Positions 1,149 to 62,299 of a stretch of DNA of 64,000 nt are shown in pieces. This stretch comes from Shigella phage ESh24, in the sequence record ON528734; one strand, written 5' to 3'. How positions within the stretch are numbered: the stretch's first letter is position 1; the number at the start of each line of letters is the position of its first letter. Under the pieces are notes generated by a model. The model worked only from the letters and a program-made list of their open reading frames with translations, did not search any database and was not told the DNA's origin. The position numbers and the translations under genes were made by a program.

Positions 1149-2705
1149 TTAGTAATGAATTTTAATAATATAGTTTAATGATATATTCCATGGTCTAGTT
1201 TCATAACCAATTAATCCTTCACGGTTTAACGTGCCAAACGAGTCACGAGCGCCACCCATTTCAAATCCGTCGTTAGTAAAGAACAAATGGTTGTCCCAGT
1301 CGGCGCTTCTACCATTGCCTAAATATCCACTACCATTAGATGCGCCAAACGGTGCATAACCTCTGTTATTTCCATTTTCCCCCCAGGCACCAGCATGTTT
1401 ATGGTATGACATTTGTTGTGCCTGAACACCGCCAACATGCATTCCGTCACATCCTACACCAAGTCTATCCTTCCCATAACCATCTTGTCCGCGTTGATTT
1501 AAAATATGACTGCCTGTGCCAGCTCCTCTAACAAAAAGACCTCGCATATCAGGAATACCAGGATTATTCCAATCACCACCAAATCTTGTTCCAACTGTGT
1601 TTCTATAATCAGGAAATTGGGCACCTGAGATGGTTCCACCATGACACATAATCCAACCTGGAGGCGCTGAATCACCCGCAAACATCATAATAGTTCCAAC
1701 CGGAACCCTTTCGGACGCATATCTTTCAGTGGCAACAGGTTGATCGCCATTTTTCCACATTCCGCCGCGCGACCAAATTCCGTTTGCTGTAAGATGGTCT
1801 AAATTTAAAGAACCATTAATAGTTTGTCCACCACGAGTATTAATTACATCTGCGTTCCATGCTAATGCTCCAGAACTATCACCTTCAGGGGCAATACCAG
1901 CTTGCGTCGTTAATTTTACTACCCCACGCATAGAACCGGTAGCTCCTCGACCATTTAGTGTTTCACCTGTTACTGCAACATCCCCCAAATTATTATTAAT
2001 TTCTGCTTGTGTTCCTAGACGTATAACACCCTTATATTCTTGTGTTGCAACAGAATTCATAAAGGTATACGGGGAAATTGCATATCCTTCACGGAGAGTT
2101 CCTTGACGAGTTTGCGCAACAGTAGATAATTGAACTACACCTCTCACAGATTCTGATGCAGTATCTTCGGAAGGAGCTATTTGTGAAATTAATTTTATTG
2201 CAAGTTTTTGCGTTTTTAATGGAGTCATTGCCGTAGTATCATCTACTCCAGCTAAAGCTGCAGGTGTAGATGATATTTTAATAACCCCATTTGATGACTC
2301 AGACGAATATCTATTTTGGAACACATCGTCAGTATGGTATTTCAGTTTTTGCGGCGTTATTGATGAATTATTATCTGAGCCTTCTAATGTTTCTTCATTT
2401 GTTGAATAGCGCGTTAAACCATACTTAGTTTCAGTAGCATTTGGATACAATAATCTTGTTGCTAATGTAGCTGGTGTAACGATTTTAGAATTATTAGTTC
2501 CATCTAAAACCTCTTGCTCTGACGCAATCATTGCTATTCCTTTAACTTCCATAGTTGCATCAGGAATACCATTTACGCCGATATTACTTATTTTTGATAA
2601 TGCAGACTGCACTGTCGTGACAGTGTCAGGAAAATTCGATCCTACTGGATCGAATTTAACATATTTTGATTCATTTGATACGTGCTGATATGTATTGTTA
2701 CTCAT
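1149..2705 (-). CDS. 12: short tail fiber protein
   Basis: 518-aa minus ORF; Gly-rich C-terminal receptor-binding region; position between 11 and wac as in T4 (T4 gp12 is 527 aa). Confidence 0.9.
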
Positions 2706-3361
2706 GCTATTCTCTCAAAATAATAAAATACCGTAGGTTGTGTGTGACTATCTAGCGTAACAGTTTGCGCACCTAATAATTGCCAAGTTCCGTATCCAGG
2801 TTTAGAAGGAGAAATTATTTCTTGTTTGAAAGTAATTCCTTTATCAGAGTATTGTTCTAAGATATGTTCTTGGTTATCTAAATACTTAACTTGTATTTTA
2901 TTTCCTATGGTAGGATGGTCTTCAAATGAATCAATTGCAATAAATTTTGCAACCATTTCCTGCAGAGCTGTTCTAACGGCACTGGTAAATTCGATTGAAG
3001 TCATTCCATTAGTAGCTTTAACAGGAATGCCAAACATATTAACAATAACTGGGTCACCTGGTTTGGCTGAAGTATCAGTAACAGTTCCTTCAAATGACCA
3101 ATAGTCTGTTTGCTGCACGCCAGTAGGAGATACGCCACTTATATTAACTAATACAGCTCCAACCTGTTGCTCTGCCATATTTCTAACATCATTGATAGCA
3201 GATTCTACATTTGGGTCATAAAAACCTTTTGCTATTTGTGAAATTGTTACAGCGCCTACTGGCTGATTATTCATAACCGAAATATCATTTTTCTTAGTTC
3301 TAAAACCAAGAAAATCTGCTAAGCGGGAAATAACTCCCGCTTTATTATTAAGTAAACTCAT
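2702..3361 (-). CDS. 11: baseplate wedge / short tail fiber attachment protein
   Basis: Start set at [20 protein letters not shown] (219 aa, as T4 gp11); start ATG overlaps gene 10 stop (TAATG); six-frame ORF extends 6 codons upstream. Confidence 0.85.
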
Positions 3362-5166
3362 TATGCAATCCTTATCCAACGGTATACAGTAATAGACGGT
3401 TGAATATTACTAATATTAGCAGGAGGAGTATGTGAAGAGTTTGTTGTTGCATAATCTTCACGATATTTTGTATATATAGGACCAGTTTCATCTGGGTCAT
3501 ATTGGCAACCTCCAATAATAACCGATCCATTTTCGTCTTCAATTAAAACTCTTTCGTCGGTTTTAGTCGCAGGAAGATTTGCGTTTTCAAGTGTCACCGT
3601 TGTTGTTCCAACCGTTCCACCGGCAGTATGTGAAGGATTTCCGCTAGAATCTAAATCATTATTGTTTAAAGCAAAGTTTGGATCCGTAACATCATCATTC
3701 CATCCTACTAAAACTTGTCCTTTACCAAATAATTTCCATGAACCAAATCCCATATAAGTCACCGGATTATTTGGGTTTATAGCATTTTCATAAATTGAAC
3801 CAACAGGATAAATGCTGTCGAAAATAGATGATATTGAATTATACGTTCTAGTATAAGAATCAACTTTTTCAACATTTGGCCAACCGATTTTATCAAAATC
3901 TGTTAAGGCCACATCACCAGTAACTTCAGTAGATGATCCTTTACTAACATAACGGTCATCAGTCAATTCAATGATGTCATCTTTTTCTAAAAGAGTTCCT
4001 AAATCATTATTGAACCATGTTATAACGATTATATCACCTGATTCAAATTTTCTATCAAATAAAAGACTGATCGGTTTTCCATCTTCATATTCTATAGAAT
4101 AATCTGTGTTTGATTCTTTCCATTCACCGCCAAGAGATATACATCCTTCTTGCGTATCTGAATTAGCGCCTTCACATAAAAACAGAGGATATCCGGCTGT
4201 TCCAGCTTGTTGTTGTAAAATTCCATTAAAACGAACTTCAAGAGAGTTAGGATTAATAGGTTCACCAGGAATTAATCCAAAGGCAGAAAATGGAATTGAT
4301 TTCATCGTCGATAAATTAGTAACATAAATGCTTCCTTCTAAAGAAGTCTTTGATGTTAATTTTGAATCTAATACTTTTATTTGACGTCTTGTATATGAAC
4401 TTCTCCACTGCGATACACCATCCATAAATGTTTCAATTTGAACAGTGTCACCAACATTACAAGGCTGTCTTAATCTAATATTAAATCCATCAAGAGGAAT
4501 CAATTCTCCTTCATTTTCCCCAGGAGAGCCAAAGTCACTGTTTTCGCTAAATACATCACCGTAATACAATTCGTTACCACGATGTTTTACTCTGATGTTG
4601 TTGACATTATAACTAGTTCCATTAAAAACATCTAAAAAGTCTGTTTGTCCTTGAACTTCGACTAAAAATTCTTTACGAGCTACATTGCTAATGTCTGAAC
4701 TAATAATTTTGTCAATTTGTTTATTTTTGACATATTCCCAACGACCCGGAGCGCAATAAACTAGCTCTAAATCACTAAATTGAACGTTAATTTCAACCGA
4801 TGACGATGATCCTTTGATAGTATCACCAGAAGCGGCTACTAAAGTAACTGGATTAACATTCCATGTTGCAAATACATCCCTAGCTCTAATTACTTTATTA
4901 TAATCATTAACAGTTCCTTTAGGAAGTTGCAGTGTTACTCTTCCAGACGAAGTATTAATAGCGTATGATTTTCCCCATTCAGCTTTTAACGTTTGCCCAG
5001 ATGAAGCATTATAAGTTTTCCAGGCACCGGCTGAATATGGAACATTACCATCACCAAGTTCATAATAAAGCTCATCAAAGTTTTCATTTATTTTTATACC
5101 ACCTTTACGCAGGTAGTCACCGGTACCATCATCTACAACATTACCGATATTAATATTTTGTTTCAT
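3361..5166 (-). CDS. 10: baseplate wedge protein
   Basis: 601-aa minus ORF; size and synteny match T4 gp10 (602 aa). Confidence 0.9.
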
Positions 5167-23108: not shown

Positions 23109-23372
23109 ATGGATAATTACGGTGAACTGTTCAACTTCTTTATGAAATGTGTTTCAGAAGATTTTGGTCGTACAGTGAATGATATTAAAGTTATCGGTCC
23201 TGACCATCCGATGTTTGAAACCTACGCAGTAATGGGTAATGAAGATGGTCAGTGGTATACTGTAAAAGTTGTGATTAACATGTTCACTGCTGAAGGTTAT
23301 GTTAAACTGTCTTCTAAAGTTTACCATGATAACGATGAAATCGCAGAAGAATATTTCAATAATATGAAATAA
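23109..23372 (+). CDS. hypothetical protein
   Basis: 87 aa from ATG 23109 (RBS ggagaataaa); the upstream in-frame extension covers the promoter and is rejected. Confidence 0.6.
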   Translation: MDNYGELFNFFMKCVSEDFGRTVNDIKVIGPDHPMFETYAVMGNEDGQWYTVKVVINMFTAEGYVKLSSKVYHDNDEIAEEYFNNMK

Positions 23373-23441
23373 TTGTGTACAAACACCAAGGACGGTGTTA
23401 TTATAGACTTATCAAAACAAATACAGAAAACGGAGAAATAA

Positions 23442-23618
23442 ATGACTACATTAATTATTTGGTTTGACGAAAATGAAGAAACATACTGCGTGAACATTGG
23501 AGAAAGCCCAATGCCAGAATTTGAATCTTCGGATAAAAACTCGGTTGTATCTTGGGCTGAAGGTTATAAAGCAGCAAAAGGCGATGTTGAAATAGTTTAC
23601 AAACTATCCGGAGTATAA
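23442..23618 (+). CDS. small hypothetical protein
   Basis: 58 aa, MTTLIIWFDENEETYCVNIGESPMPEF…; RBS cggagaaataa. Confidence 0.45.
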   Translation: MTTLIIWFDENEETYCVNIGESPMPEFESSDKNSVVSWAEGYKAAKGDVEIVYKLSGV

Positions 23619-54859: not shown

Positions 54860-55000
54860 ATGATATTTCTTGGATATGTGGTACTTTTTCTTGCATTTTA
54901 TCTATTCACTAGAGCATGTTGGATTGGATTCTTTAGCACACCAGATGGGTTTATTTCAATAATTTTATTTTGCATTTCAATGACGGTTCTTGATATATGA
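54860..55000 (+). CDS. small membrane protein
   Basis: 46 aa, hydrophobic; RBS acggag; ATGA overlap with gene 47. Confidence 0.4.
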   Translation: MIFLGYVVLFLAFYLFTRACWIGFFSTPDGFISIILFCISMTVLDI

Positions 55001-56016
55001 AAATTTTAAATTTAGGTGATTGGCATTTAGGCGTTAAAGCTGATGATGAGTGGATTCGCGGTATTCAAATTGATGGAATTAAGCAAGCGATAGAATATTC
55101 TAAGAAAAATGGAATTACGGTATGGATTCAATACGGTGATATTTTTGATGTGCGAAAAGCGATCACGCATAAAACTATGGAGTTTGCCCGTGAAATAGTT
55201 CAAATGCTTGATGGTGCTGGAATCACATTACATACTATTGTAGGAAATCACGATCTCCACTACAAAAATGTAATGCATCCAAATGCCTCTACTGAGCTTT
55301 TGGCTAAATATCCTAATGTTAAAGTATATGATAAGCCTACTACAGTAGATTTTGACGGATGTTTGATTGATTTAATTCCTTGGATGTGTGAAGAAAATAC
55401 TGGTGAAATTCTTGAACACATCAAAACTTCATCTGCTTCTTTTTGTGTTGGTCACTGGGAGCTGAATGGATTTTATTTTTATAAAGGAATGAAATCTCAC
55501 GGTCTTGAACCTGATTTCCTTAAGACTTATAAAGAAGTGTGGTCTGGTCACTTCCATACTATCTCTGAGGCTGCTAACGTCAGATATATTGGGACACCAT
55601 GGACACTAACTGCAGGTGACGAGAATGACCCTCGTGGGTTCTGGATGTTTGATACAGAAACAGAACGAATGGAATTTATTCCAAACAATACTACCTGGCA
55701 TCGTAGAATTCATTATCCATTTAAAGGAAAAATTGACTATAAAGATTTTACAAATCTATCAGTACGTGTTATAGTAACTGAAGTAGACAAAAATCTGACG
55801 AAGTTCGAATCTGAACTAGAAAAAGTTGTGCATTCATTACGAGTTGTGTCAAAAATTGATAACTCTGTCGAGTCAGATGAAAGTGAAGAAGTTGAAGTTC
55901 AATCTCTTCAGACGTTGATGGAAGAATACATCAATGCAATTCCAGACATCACTGATTCTGACCGTGAAGCACTTATTCAATATGCAAATCAGCTATATGT
56001 AGAGGCAACACAATGA
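54997..56016 (+). CDS. 47: recombination endonuclease subunit (Mre11-like)
   Basis: 339 aa; phosphoesterase motifs DWHLG, GDIFD, GNHD; same length as T4 gp47. Confidence 0.92.
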   Translation: MKILNLGDWHLGVKADDEWIRGIQIDGIKQAIEYSKKNGITVWIQYGDIFDVRKAITHKTMEFAREIVQMLDGAGITLHTIVGNHDLHYKNVMHPNASTELLAKYPNVKVYDKPTTVDFDGCLIDLIPWMCEENTGEILEHIKTSSASFCVGHWELNGFYFYKGMKSHGLEPDFLKTYKEVWSGHFHTISEAANVRYIGTPWTLTAGDENDPRGFWMFDTETERMEFIPNNTTWHRRIHYPFKGKIDYKDFTNLSVRVIVTEVDKNLTKFESELEKVVHSLRVVSKIDNSVESDESEEVEVQSLQTLMEEYINAIPDITDSDREALIQYANQLYVEATQ

Positions 56017-56276
56017 CTTTTGATGAATTTAAAAATGTTATGATGAGTCAGCATTTTGAATGCGAAGTAAAAGATGATATTGGTCATAAAGAAATTATTG
56101 AATATTGGTTTGAACCGCTAGAGGTTGAAGATAATTGTATTAAAAAGGTTACAGTCTGCACTGACTGGGCTGTATCTTTTAACTTCAACATTTTAGATAA
56201 TGACACACCTAAATCATTACGAGATATGGCTGTATCTTGTATTAAGGATGCATACTGTGAAGTTTTCGACATTTGA
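56013..56276 (+). CDS. hypothetical protein
   Basis: 87-aa ORF, ATGA overlap with gene 47. Confidence 0.5.
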   Translation: MTFDEFKNVMMSQHFECEVKDDIGHKEIIEYWFEPLEVEDNCIKKVTVCTDWAVSFNFNILDNDTPKSLRDMAVSCIKDAYCEVFDI

Positions 56277-56463
56277 CGTTAACGATGAATTCATAGCAAA
56301 TATTGATTATACCGAAGAAGATTCTAGATATGTTGGAATAATTTATATTACATCAAAAACAGCACAAGGTGTTGTTTGCATGGCTGAATTTGATGAATAC
56401 TTTTTAGATTATGATGATATGATAGAATGGTCTAAAAGATACATTAAAAGGAATCTTTTGTGA
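56248..56463 (+). CDS. hypothetical protein
   Basis: ~71 aa; start uncertain (ATG 56248 or GTG 56257). Confidence 0.4.
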   Translation: MHTVKFSTFDVNDEFIANIDYTEEDSRYVGIIYITSKTAQGVVCMAEFDEYFLDYDDMIEWSKRYIKRNLL

Positions 56464-58142
56464 AGAATTTTAAACTAAACCGAGTTAGGTATCAAAATAT
56501 AATGTCAGTAGGTGGAAATCCTATTGACATTCAATTAGATAAGGTTCAAAAAACTCTTATTACTGGACGAAATGGCGGTGGTAAGTCTACTATGTTAGAA
56601 GCCATCACATTTGGGCTTTTTGGCAAGCCATTTCGTGATGTAAAGAAAGGTCAATTAATAAACAGCACAAATAAGAAAGAACTTTTAGTTGAACTGTGGA
56701 TGGAATATGATGAGAAAAAGTACTATATCAAAAGAGGACAAAAACCAAACGTTTTCGAAATCACCGTTAACGGTACACGTCTTAATGAATCTGCCAGCAG
56801 TAAAGATTTCCAAGCAGAATTTGAACAGCTTATCGGAATGTCATATGCCAGTTTCAAGCAGATTGTTGTCCTTGGTACAGCAGGGTATACCCCTTTCATG
56901 GGTTTGTCGACCCCTGCACGAAGAAAGCTTGTGGAAGACCTGCTTGAGGTAGGAACATTAGCTGAAATGGATAAGCTTAATAAAGCACTAATACGTGAAT
57001 TAAATTCACAAAACCAAGTGCTTGATGTTAAAAAAGATAGTATTATCCAACAAATTAAAATATATAATGATAATGTTGAACGTCAGAAAAAATTAACGGG
57101 TGACAACCTTACTCGTCTTCAAAATATGTATGATGATTTGGCAAAAGAAGCTAGAACGCTAAAATCGGAAATAGAAGAAGCTAATGAAAGATTAGTTAAT
57201 ATTGTTTTGGATGAAGACCCGACTGATGCATTTAATAAAATCGGTCAAGAAGCATTTTTAATTAAATCAAAAATTGACTCGTATAATAAAGTCATTAACA
57301 TGTATCACGAAGGTGGATTATGTCCAACCTGCTTGTCACAATTAAGTTCCGGTGATAAAGTTGTTTCTAAAATTAAAGATAAAGTTTCTGAATGTACGCA
57401 TTCATTTGAACAGCTTTCAACACACCGTGATAATTTAAAAGTTCTTGTTGACGAATACCGAGATAATATTAAAACCCAGCAGTCGTTGGCAAATGATATT
57501 CGCAATAAAAAGCAATCTCTAATCACGACGGTAGATAAAGCTAAAAAAGTTAAAGCAGCTATAGAAAAAGCATCTTCTGAGTTTATTGACCATGCTGATG
57601 AAATAGCACTGCTTCAAGAAGAACTTGATAAAATTGTTAAGACAAAAACTAATTTAGTAATGGAAAAATACCACCGAGGAATTTTGACTGATATGCTCAA
57701 AGATTCTGGTATTAAAGGTGCTATTATTAAAAAGTACATTCCATTATTTAATAAGCAGATTAACCATTATCTTAAAATAATGGAAGCGGATTATGTGTTT
57801 ACATTAGATGAAGAATTTAATGAGACAATTAAATCCCGTGGTCGTGAAGATTTTAGTTATGCTTCATTTAGTGAAGGCGAAAAAGCGCGAATTGATATTG
57901 CTCTTTTATTTACTTGGCGTGATATTGCTTCTATTGTATCTGGTGTTAGTATTAGTACATTAATACTCGATGAAGTGTTTGATGGGTCATTTGATGCCGA
58001 AGGTATTAAAGGTGTAGCTAATATTATAAATTCAATGAAAAACACTAATGTTTTTATAATTTCGCATAAAGACCATGACCCGCAAGAATATGGTCAGCAT
58101 CTTCAAATGAAGAAAGTTGGTCGATTTACTGTAATGGTTTAA
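56460..58142 (+). CDS. 46: recombination endonuclease ATPase subunit (Rad50/SbcC-like)
   Basis: 560 aa; GTG start; Walker A GRNGGGKST, central coiled coil with CPTC zinc hook, signature SEGE and Walker B ILDEVFD. Confidence 0.92.
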   Translation: MKNFKLNRVRYQNIMSVGGNPIDIQLDKVQKTLITGRNGGGKSTMLEAITFGLFGKPFRDVKKGQLINSTNKKELLVELWMEYDEKKYYIKRGQKPNVFEITVNGTRLNESASSKDFQAEFEQLIGMSYASFKQIVVLGTAGYTPFMGLSTPARRKLVEDLLEVGTLAEMDKLNKALIRELNSQNQVLDVKKDSIIQQIKIYNDNVERQKKLTGDNLTRLQNMYDDLAKEARTLKSEIEEANERLVNIVLDEDPTDAFNKIGQEAFLIKSKIDSYNKVINMYHEGGLCPTCLSQLSSGDKVVSKIKDKVSECTHSFEQLSTHRDNLKVLVDEYRDNIKTQQSLANDIRNKKQSLITTVDKAKKVKAAIEKASSEFIDHADEIALLQEELDKIVKTKTNLVMEKYHRGILTDMLKDSGIKGAIIKKYIPLFNKQINHYLKIMEADYVFTLDEEFNETIKSRGREDFSYASFSEGEKARIDIALLFTWRDIASIVSGVSISTLILDEVFDGSFDAEGIKGVANIINSMKNTNVFIISHKDHDPQEYGQHLQMKKVGRFTVMV

Positions 58143-58197
58143 TTTATAAGAGATTATGCTTTAATTTATTAGAGTATAATCTCTGTGGAGGAAAAAC

Positions 58198-58386
58198 ATG
58201 GAATATTCAACTGGACAGCATCTATTAACTTTTCCTGAAATAAAACGATATATTCTGAGAAATAATTTTTCTAATGAAGAGCATATAGTTACTGAATCTA
58301 TGCTTAGGAATGCATTTAAAGCAGAATATACAAAAATAATGTCCAATAGAAATGAAGCTTGGACTGTTACTGATTATTATGACTAA
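58198..58386 (+). CDS. small hypothetical protein
   Basis: 62 aa; RBS ggaggaaaaac. Confidence 0.5.
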   Translation: MEYSTGQHLLTFPEIKRYILRNNFSNEEHIVTESMLRNAFKAEYTKIMSNRNEAWTVTDYYD

Positions 58387-58395
58387 AGGTGTATT

Positions 58396-58785
58396 ATGAC
58401 TAAAATTACCGTGAATTATACTGTTGATGTAAAAGATATTCAGCCAAAACACGTGCGTTCTGAATCAAATCCACAAAACCAAAATAAAATTCGTCGAGCA
58501 TGGGTTTTGTCTCTTTCTGATAACGCAATGGAAGTTATTCAGAACAAAATTAAATCTGCACCTGCTCGTCATGCGTATTATGAAGCTATCGATCGTGAAG
58601 TAAGTAATAAATGGATTGAACTAATGCGCAAACATACTACAGAATCCCTAAACGCTGGTGCTAAATTTATTATGACTTCATGCGGTGAACGTCTTGAAGA
58701 TGATTATTGCGGTAATGCAGATGAACGTCTAATTGTTGCTGCTCAAATTGTTGCGGAAACAATTGTGGCCGAGTTTAATAAATGA
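58396..58785 (+). CDS. rpbA: RNA polymerase-binding protein
   Basis: 129 aa as T4 RpbA; position between 46 and 45. Confidence 0.75.
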
Positions 58786-59670
58786 ATTTAGTATATCTTA
58801 TTAGCTTTCCAGAGCGGGAAGCTAAAAATATTTTTCCGTGTTATTATATAGGTTCAAAAATTAACGCAATTTTCGATGGAACAAATATAATTGATTCAGC
58901 TGGAAAGATTTATACTGGAAGCGTGTCATCGAGTTATAGTGATGAATATTTTGAGCTTATTAAAACCACTAAATATACCGTCAAAATTTTAGCTGAAACT
59001 ATATTAGATCCAAGAAAATTGGAAAGATTTTTTTCAATTAAAAGTTAAAGCAAAAAGCAATATAAAATATTTTAATAAAGCATACGCAGATGAAAATACT
59101 TTAATTGGCGCTAAAGGATATGGAACATATAAAAATGTTTTAACTGGAAAAATTGTAAAGCTTTCGCAATCTGAAATTACGCCCGATTATGTTGGTATTC
59201 GTAAAGGTTACAAACATAGTTCTGACGTAAAATATAAAATATCTAATTCAATGAAGAATCACTGGACCGATGAGAAAAAGCTTAAACTTTCAAATAAGAT
59301 GAAATTGAAATATCTTGATTGTAGTTATGCTAAAAAGTTTAGTGATATAATGAATTCAGAAAGTGTAAGATCAAAAATTTCTAAATCTCAAAAAGAGTTA
59401 TGGAATAATGCTGAAAGAAGACAGAGAGCTTCAATTCAAGCAACTGTTAGAAATAATTTACCGGAATTCAAATCAAAATTTAGAAAATCTAAAGCTAGAG
59501 GAACTTGGATTGAACATGAAGATGAATTAAAAACTTTATGGCATGCTTACGGAAAACCGAGTTATAATAAATTTCGTAAAATTGCAGTAGCTAATGGGTT
59601 TAACGACGAATCTTATCAGGGTGCTGTACGGTCCTGGTCTAACTATTATGTAAATAGGAAATTGAAATGA
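58782..59670 (+). pseudogene. seg-like GIY-YIG homing endonuclease, split by a frameshift
   Basis: Frame A 58782-59048 encodes a GIY-YIG-like N-terminus (VYLISF…YYIGSKI); frame B is open from 59008 to 59670 and encodes a Lys/Ser-rich tail (KISNSMKNHW…, VRSKISKSQKELW) of the kind found in homing-endonuclease DNA-binding regions; the frames overlap at 59008-59048. Confidence 0.5.
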
Positions 59671-60353
59671 AATTATCTAAAGACACACTGAATATTTTGA
59701 AAAATTTCGCTACTATTAACTCCGGTATTATGCTTAAATCTGGTCAATTTATTATGACTCGCGCAGTTAATGGTACAACTTATGCGGAAGCAAATATTTC
59801 TGACGTTATTGATTTTGATGTAGCAATTTACGATTTGAACGGTTTTCTCGGTATTCTGTCTTTAGTTAATGATGATGCAGAAATTTCCCAGTCAGAAGAT
59901 GGAAATATTAAAATTGCTGATGCCCGCTCAACAATTTTTTGGCCAGCAGCCGATCCGAGTACAGTAGTTGCTCCTAATAAACCAATTCCATTCCCGGTAG
60001 CATCTGTTGTTACTGAAATTAAAGCTGAAGACCTTCAACAGCTGTTGCGTGTATCTCGTGGTCTGCAGATTGATACAATTGCTATCACGGTAAAAGAAGG
60101 TAAAATCGTAATTAACGGTTTTAATAAAGTAGAAGATTCTGCTCTGACCCGCGTTAAATATTCTTTGACTCTTGGTGATTATGATGGTGAAAATACATTT
60201 AATTTCATTATCAATATGGCAAATATGAAAATGCAACCAGGAAATTATAAACTTCTGCTCTGGGCAAAAGGTAAACAAGGTGCTGCTAAATTTGAAGGTG
60301 AACACGCGAATTATGTAGTAGCTCTTGAAGCTGATTCTACCCACGATTTTTAA
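59667..60353 (+). CDS. 45: sliding clamp
   Basis: 228 aa, MKLSKDTLNILKNFATINSGIMLKSGQFIMTRAVNG…; matches T4 gp45. Confidence 0.95.
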   Translation: MKLSKDTLNILKNFATINSGIMLKSGQFIMTRAVNGTTYAEANISDVIDFDVAIYDLNGFLGILSLVNDDAEISQSEDGNIKIADARSTIFWPAADPSTVVAPNKPIPFPVASVVTEIKAEDLQQLLRVSRGLQIDTIAITVKEGKIVINGFNKVEDSALTRVKYSLTLGDYDGENTFNFIINMANMKMQPGNYKLLLWAKGKQGAAKFEGEHANYVVALEADSTHDF

Positions 60354-60355
60354 TA

Positions 60356-60371
60356 GAGGGCTTCGGCCCTT
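60356..60371 (+). terminator. GC hairpin between 45 and 44
   Basis: gagggc-ttcg-gccctt. Confidence 0.5.
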
Positions 60372-60404
60372 TATAATTTACACTAAAACTTGAATGAGGA
60401 AATT

Positions 60405-61364
60405 ATGATTACCGTAAATGAAAAAGAACACATTCTTGAACAGAAATATCGTCCATCTACTATCGATGAATGTATTCTTCCCGCCTTTGATAAAGAAACC
60501 TTTAAATCTATTACAAGTAAAGGTAAAATTCCACATATTATTCTTCATTCTCCTTCTCCAGGAACAGGTAAAACAACTGTAGCGAAAGCATTGTGTCATG
60601 ATGTAAATGCTGATATGATGTTTGTGAATGGATCAGATTGTAAAATTGATTTCGTTCGTGGTCCTTTGACTAATTTTGCCAGCGCCGCTTCATTTGATGG
60701 TCGTCAAAAAGTAATCGTTATTGATGAATTTGACCGCTCAGGATTAGCAGAGTCTCAGCGACATCTTCGCTCCTTTATGGAAGCTTATAGTTCAAACTGT
60801 AGTATTATTATTACTGCTAACAATATTGATGGTATTATTAAACCACTTCAGTCACGCTGTCGAGTTATTACATTCGGTCAACCGACCGATGAAGATAAAA
60901 TTGAAATGATGAAGCAGATGATTCGTCGATTGACTGAAATCTGTAAACATGAAGGTATTGCTATAGCTGATATGAAAGTTGTAGCAGCTTTGGTTAAAAA
61001 GAATTTTCCTGATTTTCGTAAAACTATTGGCGAGCTCGATAGTTATTCATCTAAAGGTGTTTTGGATGCTGGTATTTTATCACTGGTTACTAACGATCGT
61101 GGTGCTATTGATGATGTTCTTGAGTCTCTCAAAAATAAAGATGTTAAACAACTCAGAGCTTTAGCACCAAAATATGCAGCCGATTATTCGTGGTTCGTTG
61201 GTAAACTTGCCGAAGAAATCTATACACGTGTAACACCACAGAGTATTATTCGTATGTACGAAATTGTCGGCGAAAATAATCAGTATCATGGTATTGCAGC
61301 TAATATTGAATTGCATCTAGCTTATCTTTTCATTCAGTTAGCATGTGAAATGCAGTGGAAGTGA
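60405..61364 (+). CDS. 44: clamp loader large subunit
   Basis: 319 aa from ATG 60405, [27 protein letters not shown]…; Walker [11 protein letters not shown]. Confidence 0.95.
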
Positions 61365-61365
61365 T

Positions 61366-61929
61366 ATGAGCTTATTTGAAGATGATATTCAATTAAACGA
61401 GCATCAAGTTGCTTGGTATTCTAAAGATTGGACAGCTGTCCAATCCGCTGCTGATTCTTTTAAAGAAAAAGCTGAAAATGAGTTTTTTGAAATAATTGGA
61501 GCTATTAATAATAAAACTAAATGCTCTATTGCTCAAAAAGATTATTCAAAATACATGGTTGAAAATGCATTATCACAATTTCCAGAGTGCATGCCAGCTG
61601 TATATGCTATGAATTTAATTGGATCAGGCTTAAGTGATGAAGCCCATTTTAATTATCTAATGGCTGCAGTTCCTCGTGGTAAAAGATATGGTAAATGGGC
61701 AAAACTAGTTGAAGATTCCACCGAAGTATTGATTATTAAGTTACTTGCTAAACGGTATCAAGTTAATACAAATGATGCAATTAACTATAAATCAATTCTT
61801 ACTAAAAATGGAAAACTTCCTTTAGTATTAAAAGAACTAAAAGGTTTAGTCACGGATGATTTTTTGAAAGAAGTGACTAAGAACGTAAAAGAACAGAAAC
61901 AACTCAAAAAACTAGCATTGGAATGGTAA
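61366..61929 (+). CDS. 62: clamp loader small subunit
   Basis: 187 aa from ATG 61366, [22 protein letters not shown]…; same length as T4 gp62. Confidence 0.9.
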
Positions 61930-61930
61930 A

Positions 61931-62299
61931 ATGATTGAAATTACTCTTAAAAAACCTGAAGATTTTCTGAAAGTAAAAGAAACTTTGACTCGTATGGGAA
62001 TTGCTAATAATAAAGATAAAGTTCTGTATCAGTCCTGTCATATTCTTCAGAAAAAAGGACTATACTATATCGTTCATTTTAAAGAAATGCTTCGTATGGA
62101 TGGCCGTCAAGTTGAAATGACAGAAGAAGATGAAGTTCGTCGTGATTCGATTGCATGGCTGTTAGAAGATTGGGGGCTGATTGAAATCGTTCCTGGACAA
62201 AGAACTTTTATGAAAGATTTAACTAATAACTTCCGAGTTATTTCTTTTAAACAAAAACATGAATGGAAACTCGTTCCTAAATATACGATTGGTAATTAA
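61931..62299 (+). CDS. regA: translational repressor RegA
   Basis: 122 aa, MIEITLKKPEDFLKVKETLTRMGIANNKDKVLYQSCHILQKKGLYYIVHFKEM…. Confidence 0.95.
   Translation: MIEITLKKPEDFLKVKETLTRMGIANNKDKVLYQSCHILQKKGLYYIVHFKEMLRMDGRQVEMTEEDEVRRDSIAWLLEDWGLIEIVPGQRTFMKDLTNNFRVISFKQKHEWKLVPKYTIGN

Follow-up and report, generated by a model that had tools for sequence, protein, structure and literature searches.

A probable one-base knock-out of a SegG-like homing endonuclease gene between rpbA and gene 45 of Shigella phage ESh24

Between rpbA and gene 45 of Shigella phage ESh24, two open reading frames overlap in different frames, and the question is whether they are two genes, one gene that is read through a frameshift, or the pieces of a single broken gene. 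The window analysed here is a stretch of 64,000 nucleotides from the sequence record ON528734; the part of interest is a T4-type (Tequatrovirus) segment with the local order 46, 45.2, rpbA, the insert, 45, 44, 62, regA and 43. A preliminary description, drawn from the letters alone, had read the insert as a frameshifted seg-like homing endonuclease gene (HEG), in which a GIY-YIG-like N-terminal module in one frame (A) is followed by a Lys/Ser-rich, DNA-binding tail in another (B). Retranslation bears out the coordinates and frames given there for the two ORFs together with their 41-nt overlap (59008-59048), and the neighbours rpbA and gene 45 lie where they had been placed (Table 1).

Frames A and B are offset by +1. 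The translation of ORF A begins MNLVYLISF...PCYYIGSK in the ORF listing and comprises the nuclease core through a conserved Glu (in LERFF), after which five out-of-frame codons lead to the TAA stop, so that the conserved Asn of the YFN motif and all that lies beyond it are missing. As to frame B, its earliest ATG, GTG or TTG, which is also the sole start codon in the frame, is the ATG at 59251; it opens an ORF of 139 aa and has no evident Shine-Dalgarno sequence ahead of it. In the GenBank annotation of ESh24 the products are entered separately as hypothetical proteins, one 88 aa long (URY13021.1) and the other 139 aa (URY13022.1).

Table 1. Features of the rpbA/45 locus in the ESh24 window, and of further alleles, numbered within the stretches compared
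Feature	Position	Strand	Remarks
rpbA, 129 aa	58396..58785	+	stop TGA overlaps the HEG start in ATGA, 58782-58785
Homing endonuclease gene (HEG), entire	58782..59670	+	889 nt in ESh24; intact form 888 nt, 295 aa
ORF A, 5' fragment, 88 aa, frame A	58782..59048	+	TAA stop at 59046-59048
Frame B open stretch, 220 codons	59008..59670	+	TGA at 59668-59670 ends the frame; earlier in-frame stop TAG at 59005-59007
T7 homopolymer, frameshift site	59028..59034	+	inside the 41-nt overlap; T6 in relatives
HEG 3' part, frame B, wild-type residues 85-295	59035..59670	+	remainder of the nuclease with YFN, beta-hairpin linker, Lys/Ser-rich NUMOD3-like helices, C-terminal three-helix region
T4 middle-promoter-like motif	59544..59568	+	TGCTTAC, 13 nt, TATAAT; within the 3' end of the HEG; gene 45 follows after ~100 nt
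Gene 45 ribosome-binding site and ATGA overlap of HEG stop and gene 45 start	59656..59670	+	AGGA at 59656-59659; stretch conserved across three genus-level alleles
Gene 45, sliding clamp, 228 aa, intact	59667..60353	+	three synonymous changes in the first codons (59673, 59675, 59684)
EC121 frameshift	codon 18/19		+C; HEG at 1887-2775
Logan contig ERR11570814 frameshift	codon 117		A5 to A4 (-A); HEG at 2534-3420
ENA metagenome scaffold ERZ28574151 frameshift	codon 68		A4 to A3 (-A); HEG at 1265-2151
AV118 (Mosigvirus) HEG allele	1501-2391
TH15 (Gaprivervirus) HEG allele	1501-2388		GTG start

Relatives of ESh24 carry the same insert in one piece. In 11 of the 12 checked base by base, rpbA and gene 45 are separated by a single 888-nt ORF of 295 aa, colinear with both ESh24 pieces and with a run of six Ts (T6) where ESh24 has seven (T7); the remaining one, EC121, has T6 at this point too, but a frameshift of its own farther upstream. 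One T is the sole difference in length between ESh24 and the intact relatives, as seen in an alignment that took in PaulHMueller, SHBML-50-1, EC121 and GiZh. In a comparison over 24 kb with phage GiZh, the same extra T is the only indel in a 7.3-kb block of 98% identity (54997-62299), and the run in which it falls is, as T6, the longest homopolymer of the HEG. The place of the frameshift can thus be narrowed from the overlap flagged in the preliminary description to the T-run at 59028-59034, which lies within it. Immediately beyond the block, ESh24 is devoid of a segment of ~220 nt between regA and 43 (62296-62299, against GiZh 23325-23543, ORF43.1), a presence/absence polymorphism in its own right.

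Judging from these alignments, the pieces A and B are one disrupted gene and not a chance overlap. The existence of two independent overlapping genes, one for a small N-terminal protein and one for a Lys/Ser-rich DNA-binding protein, would agree with the two GenBank entries, yet it retains next to no probability in view of the colinear 295-aa ORF of the relatives, of the family PHROG 655, annotated as homing endonuclease, which matches the intact protein over residues 1-294 (E 7e-33), and of a frame B in which no start precedes 59251. It was in fact two independent genes with homologues lacking nuclease motifs that the preliminary description had named as the case against its own reading, a case which the intact colinear ORFs counter.

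The T7 form is so far private to ESh24: it occurs in 0 of the 12 relatives compared and in 0 of three further database alleles, all with T6, namely an intact one on a contig of SRR13517639 and those of ERZ28574151 and ERR11570814; in IMG/VR, neither the exact T7-containing pattern nor a protein-based search for the locus returned a match. The phage might truly have T6 and an intact 295-aa gene, with the extra T of the deposited sequence a consensus error at a homopolymer. The lesion does amount to one base, placed in the gene's longest homopolymer, in an allele without other sign of decay; all four disrupted alleles of the locus (see below) are one-base homopolymer indels, the typical kind of assembly error, and the assembler, Newbler, was made for flow-space data. 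The reads, however, are MiSeq 2x300 with a minimum coverage of 49.5x (PMC9686686), at which consensus errors in a 7-nt homopolymer are rare; the essential genes 46, 45, 44 and 62 and the remainder of the 7.3-kb block are free of further visible frameshifts, and real slippage mutations fall at homopolymers as well. A miscall is therefore considered unlikely, though with some weight of its own, and a biological origin of the extra T is the more plausible reading. As the substitutions private to the ESh24 allele number only three, two of them synonymous and the third from Ser to Thr, and its frame B is free of stops down to the natural TGA, the lesion appears to be recent.

A one-base shift in a HEG, a class of genes whose regulation has been reviewed (PMC2988022), may also be looked at as a device. 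In particular, the U7 run could let the ribosome slip by +1 (UUU UUU U), or the RNA polymerase slip to U6, so as to produce the wild-type ...LERFFQLKV... at a low level and to throttle a toxic nuclease; the preliminary description had likewise spoken of a decaying or frameshift-regulated endonuclease. The run does form a slippery sequence at the junction of the frames and, for the extra T lies within it, a one-base slip of RNA or ribosome would restore exactly the wild-type protein. Along the same line, very low expression suffices for homing endonucleases. The shifted arrangement, however, is conserved in no relative, the 11 intact ones, EC121, SRR13517639, ERZ28574151 and ERR11570814 all having T6 in frame, and this leaves programmed frameshifting unsupported. 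In addition, the remaining broken alleles have lost their frame at other positions and in both directions (+1 and -1), the run is followed by UCA, which is not a stop codon and not obviously slow or notably rare, and efficient transcriptional slippage needs longer runs, of about nine or more. The odds on a programmed device are accordingly very slim: of the two terms of the preliminary description, decay stands and frameshift regulation does not, T6 being present in every relative examined and other homopolymers being broken elsewhere. Slippage may still yield traces of active enzyme in ESh24, a significant amount being unlikely.

How widespread the insert is was assessed by a megablast search with rpbA, the insert and gene 45 as query against 50,697 phage records, a collection from which ESh24 itself is absent. 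The insert is covered in 24 of 626 matching records (~4%), the remaining ones matching rpbA and 45 alone; among 20 distinct insert-bearing genomes, the matched stretch measures 1957 nt in 19, against 1958 nt in ESh24. A single 888-nt CDS is annotated in PaulHMueller/Bas45, SHBML-50-1, bov9_1, S1P5QW, Lv5cm, N2, GRNsp7, F13076 and G10400, and several relatives' annotations give 'homing endonuclease' as the product name. The records that lack the HEG, T4 and HY03 among them, have a spacer of 55 nt in its place. The preliminary description had placed the known seg genes of T4 elsewhere and had proposed comparing the rpbA-45 interval with T4 and relatives; the comparison agrees with that placing, with an empty site in T4 and an intact ORF in the relatives.

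Presence of the insert is thus sporadic, at one fixed site between conserved genes, and it extends beyond the genus: protein alleles of 54-59% identity occupy the same rpbA/45 site in the Mosigvirus phages AV116 and AV118 and in the Gaprivervirus TH15. Diverged alleles also appear in BFVD in apparently split (120 + 184 aa) and shortened (210 aa, VR26) forms. A search of the literature on T4 HEGs brought up none at rpbA/45, a junction that adds to the sites of seg-type HEGs in T-even phages.

What kind of protein the intact gene encodes is indicated by its N-terminal third. Over residues 1-102 its identity is 39.8% to T4 SegG (E 3e-9; tblastn over 2.3 Gb) and 35-43% to HEGs of other T-even phages at the segA position, beside gene 49 and beside gene 59. 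The N-terminal domain also matches PHROG 7504, annotated as homing endonuclease, at E 5e-18; a profile search retrieves, with E from 1e-25 to 1e-46, proteins of SegG type that are named 'homing endonuclease', and Foldseek against BFVD retrieves a SegG at E 5e-10. Two alignments of the clade, of nine and eight sequences with T4 SegG included, have Y5, P19, Y21, Y22, I23, G24, S25, K26, Y44, S47, E81, Y96, F97 and N98 as invariant residues. The motifs of GIY and YIG type are VYL (residues 4-6) and YYIG (21-24), on strands 2-8 and 21-26 of the AF2 model, and the GIY-YIG alpha/beta fold is recognisable with a moderate match. E81 and N98, the latter in YFN, stand 17 residues apart and would, by order and spacing, be the equivalents of I-TevI E75 and N90. 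In the interval from the YIG motif to the conserved Glu, where I-TevI has R27, no column of either clade alignment is invariably Arg or Lys; near the position aligned with R27, SegG and some relatives have Arg and the rpbA/45 HEG has SSSYSDEYFELIK.

Pfam PF01541 (GIY-YIG) matches neither the intact protein nor either fragment at E<=1 in a run of Pfam and NCBIfam. T4 SegG is likewise without any Pfam match, so the Pfam test is uninformative, the model being insensitive to this clade. A related protein (L007) scores 55.0 bits, E 1e-14, against TIGR01453, the group I intron endonuclease family, just short of the cut-off of 56.05. The clade profile gave chance-level matches to PDB sequences, and hhalign of the clade with an I-TevI sequence gave a weak NUMOD3-like match, with the nuclease domain unaligned. 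In the C-terminal half, which is all-helical in the AF2 model and ends in three helices, NUMOD3 scores only E 0.1 in the intact protein (13 bits, below the cut-off of 20.4), and at the aligned positions of L007 and of a second relative (L008) it is significant (E 3e-9 and 7e-7). In the model, moreover, the YIG strand is set apart from the first helix by an insertion of ~25 residues.

The GIY-YIG-like N-terminus of the preliminary description is hence backed by homology to SegG, by motifs and by a moderate fold match, and not by Pfam; its DNA-binding tail finds weak backing in the sub-threshold NUMOD3 similarity of the protein itself. Its overall claim of a frameshifted seg-like HEG between rpbA and 45 holds, with the N-terminal homology to T4 SegG and the 295-aa ORF of the relatives in its favour. 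From its sequence, the protein may be filed as a SegG-like, free-standing and uncharacterised member of the phage GIY-YIG Seg family. For the 88-aa product of ESh24 lacks the conserved Asn and the whole DNA-binding half, though it keeps GIY, YIG and Glu, it should be inactive.

Is the intact form a gene in use? Over 13 alleles, with the frameshifts of ESh24 and EC121 repaired in silico, pN/pS of the HEG is 0.093, as compared with 0.089 for rpbA and 0.038 for gene 45, which argues for purifying selection on the intact alleles. Its silent diversity (pS 0.053) is below that of the flanks (0.107 and 0.074), as would fit a functional gene whose common ancestor is more recent than that of its surroundings.

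At the same time, the gene is repeatedly broken. Three other alleles, those of EC121, ERR11570814 and ERZ28574151, have different one-base homopolymer frameshifts, both +1 and -1, so that, with ESh24 included, at least four independent frameshift alleles exist at rpbA/45. A case in point is the ERR11570814 allele, the closest to that of ESh24, which has T6 and is broken at another site. The four frameshifts fall in the first 40% of the HEG, a clustering that is not significant, given that 55% of the bases in runs of four or more fall there. Two cluster members of 88 and 82 aa were considered as further shortened alleles and discounted, since their C-termini, at contig ends, resemble translated library adapter. 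That close relatives differ in having them, and that frameshifts inactivate them, are given as hallmarks of HEGs in PMC10448857 and PMC2790892. Frameshifts that recur, at different sites and at the tips of lineages, in a gene otherwise kept by purifying selection are what is expected of the decay phase of a HEG.

The junctions of the insert have features that bear on how it arrived. In HEG-carrying genomes the spacer is replaced, and ATGA overlaps join rpbA stop to HEG start and HEG stop to the start of 45. The C-terminus of RpbA reads FNK before the stop in HEG carriers and FNR in HEG-less phages (58780-58784; Arg to Lys); these substitutions and the three synonymous changes within the first six codons of 45 are present in 13 of 13 HEG-carrying sequences and in 0 of 2 HEG-less ones (T4 and HY03); farther out from the junctions the flanks are mosaic. 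These differences fit a short, tightly linked tract, and they may be co-converted markers or target-site immunity changes; they leave the cleavage site unplaced. As evidence of homing the flank signature is limited, being confined to a few junction sites and to 13 HEG-carrying versus two HEG-less sequences.

With the spacer, an expression signal of gene 45 appears to have been exchanged. The spacer of T4 and HY03 carries TTGCTTTAT...TATAAA upstream of gene 45, which I read as a MotA box plus -10 element typical of T4 middle promoters. In ESh24, the motif at 59544-59568 is a candidate middle promoter for gene 45 embedded in the HEG, and at its place the AV118 and TH15 alleles have a perfect TGCTTTA-N12-TATATT; protein and codon constraints could equally account for it. 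The pattern TGCTTNA-N11-13-TANNNT occurs 22 times in the window, against 5.3 expected from shuffles, two examples being 53570 and 58157, the latter upstream of 45.2, a surplus consistent with many MotA-dependent promoters in an early/middle region. Gene 45 has its own Shine-Dalgarno sequence (AGGA); the loss of translational coupling to the HEG need not affect it.

A terminator-like hairpin at 58801-58825 (plus strand; 10-bp stem, 5-nt loop, a T-rich tract after it), 20 nt into the HEG, was entertained as a regulatory element and rejected because its z-score is -1.15 and its register is not kept in AV118 or TH15. TH15 has a different, stronger hairpin near the equivalent position.

Because the spacer promoter of 45 has been replaced, and a MotA-box promoter and the ribosome-binding site of 45 seem to lie inside the 3' end of the HEG, the cassette might be hard to delete. 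On this basis it can be imagined that phages silence the nuclease by reversible homopolymer slips instead, T7 being an off or attenuated state of a phase-variable or leaky HEG. If so, the T7 allele could revert, or be read through at a low level via U7 slippage. Such a scheme is regarded as quite improbable.

To sum up, it is likely that ESh24 carries a recent one-T knock-out of a free-standing, SegG-like GIY-YIG HEG, precisely inserted between rpbA and 45 and probably inactivated in this phage. The intact 295-aa enzyme would act in mixed infections, with the rpbA-45 region of HEG-less relatives as its cleavage target; recombinational repair would then copy the HEG into the cut genome, carrying nearby flanking markers along. 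In the ESh24 lineage, replication slippage would have added one T to the longest homopolymer of the gene (T6 to T7), thereby shifting the frame after the catalytic Glu. The outcome would be an 88-aa stub and a 3' remainder that is untranslated or poorly translated, hence a presumably inactive endonuclease. Such a lesion, young and lineage-specific, may be regarded as one instance of the recurrent decay of this HEG.

To a specialist, the ordinary knock-out of a mobile gene, with no special frameshift mechanism, comes as no surprise. Its value for annotation is that the two 'hypothetical proteins' of ESh24 would be the halves of one homing endonuclease pseudogene. The locus could moreover serve as a small natural series of the HEG life cycle, with intact alleles, at least four knock-outs and alleles of 54-59% identity across three genera, and it is relevant to the way in which the expression signals of gene 45, an essential neighbour, are taken over by an incoming cassette.

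Among known systems, the closest is SegG (gp32.1) of T4, a free-standing GIY-YIG homing endonuclease at the genes 59/32 site. The N-terminal ~100 aa of the two proteins are homologous and share the pattern MN.VY...P.YYIGSK...Y..S...E...YFN; both genes are free-standing, promoter-less cassettes between replication genes, and both are optional among T-even phages. Signals for the downstream gene inside the 3' end of the HEG are established for segG, within which promoters of gene 32 are found (PMC2988022), whereas at rpbA/45 they consist of a motif only. The rpbA/45 protein also differs in being longer (295 vs 210 aa), in a C-terminal half unrelated in sequence, in its site (rpbA/45, not 59/32) and, in ESh24, in its frameshift.

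Unlike I-TevI and the other GIY-YIG endonucleases of group I introns (TIGR01453, PDB 1LN0), the rpbA/45 HEG is not intron-encoded; its similarity to I-TevI is undetectable by Pfam or HMM profile, a conserved Arg equivalent to R27 was not found, and the insertion of ~25 residues follows the YIG strand. With the defunct HEGs of phages, such as I-TevIII of T4 and the frameshifted HEGs in ICP1 phages, it has in common a patchy presence and frameshifts; in contrast to them, its decay is minimal, amounting to one base without deletions, and the intact alleles are still under purifying selection.
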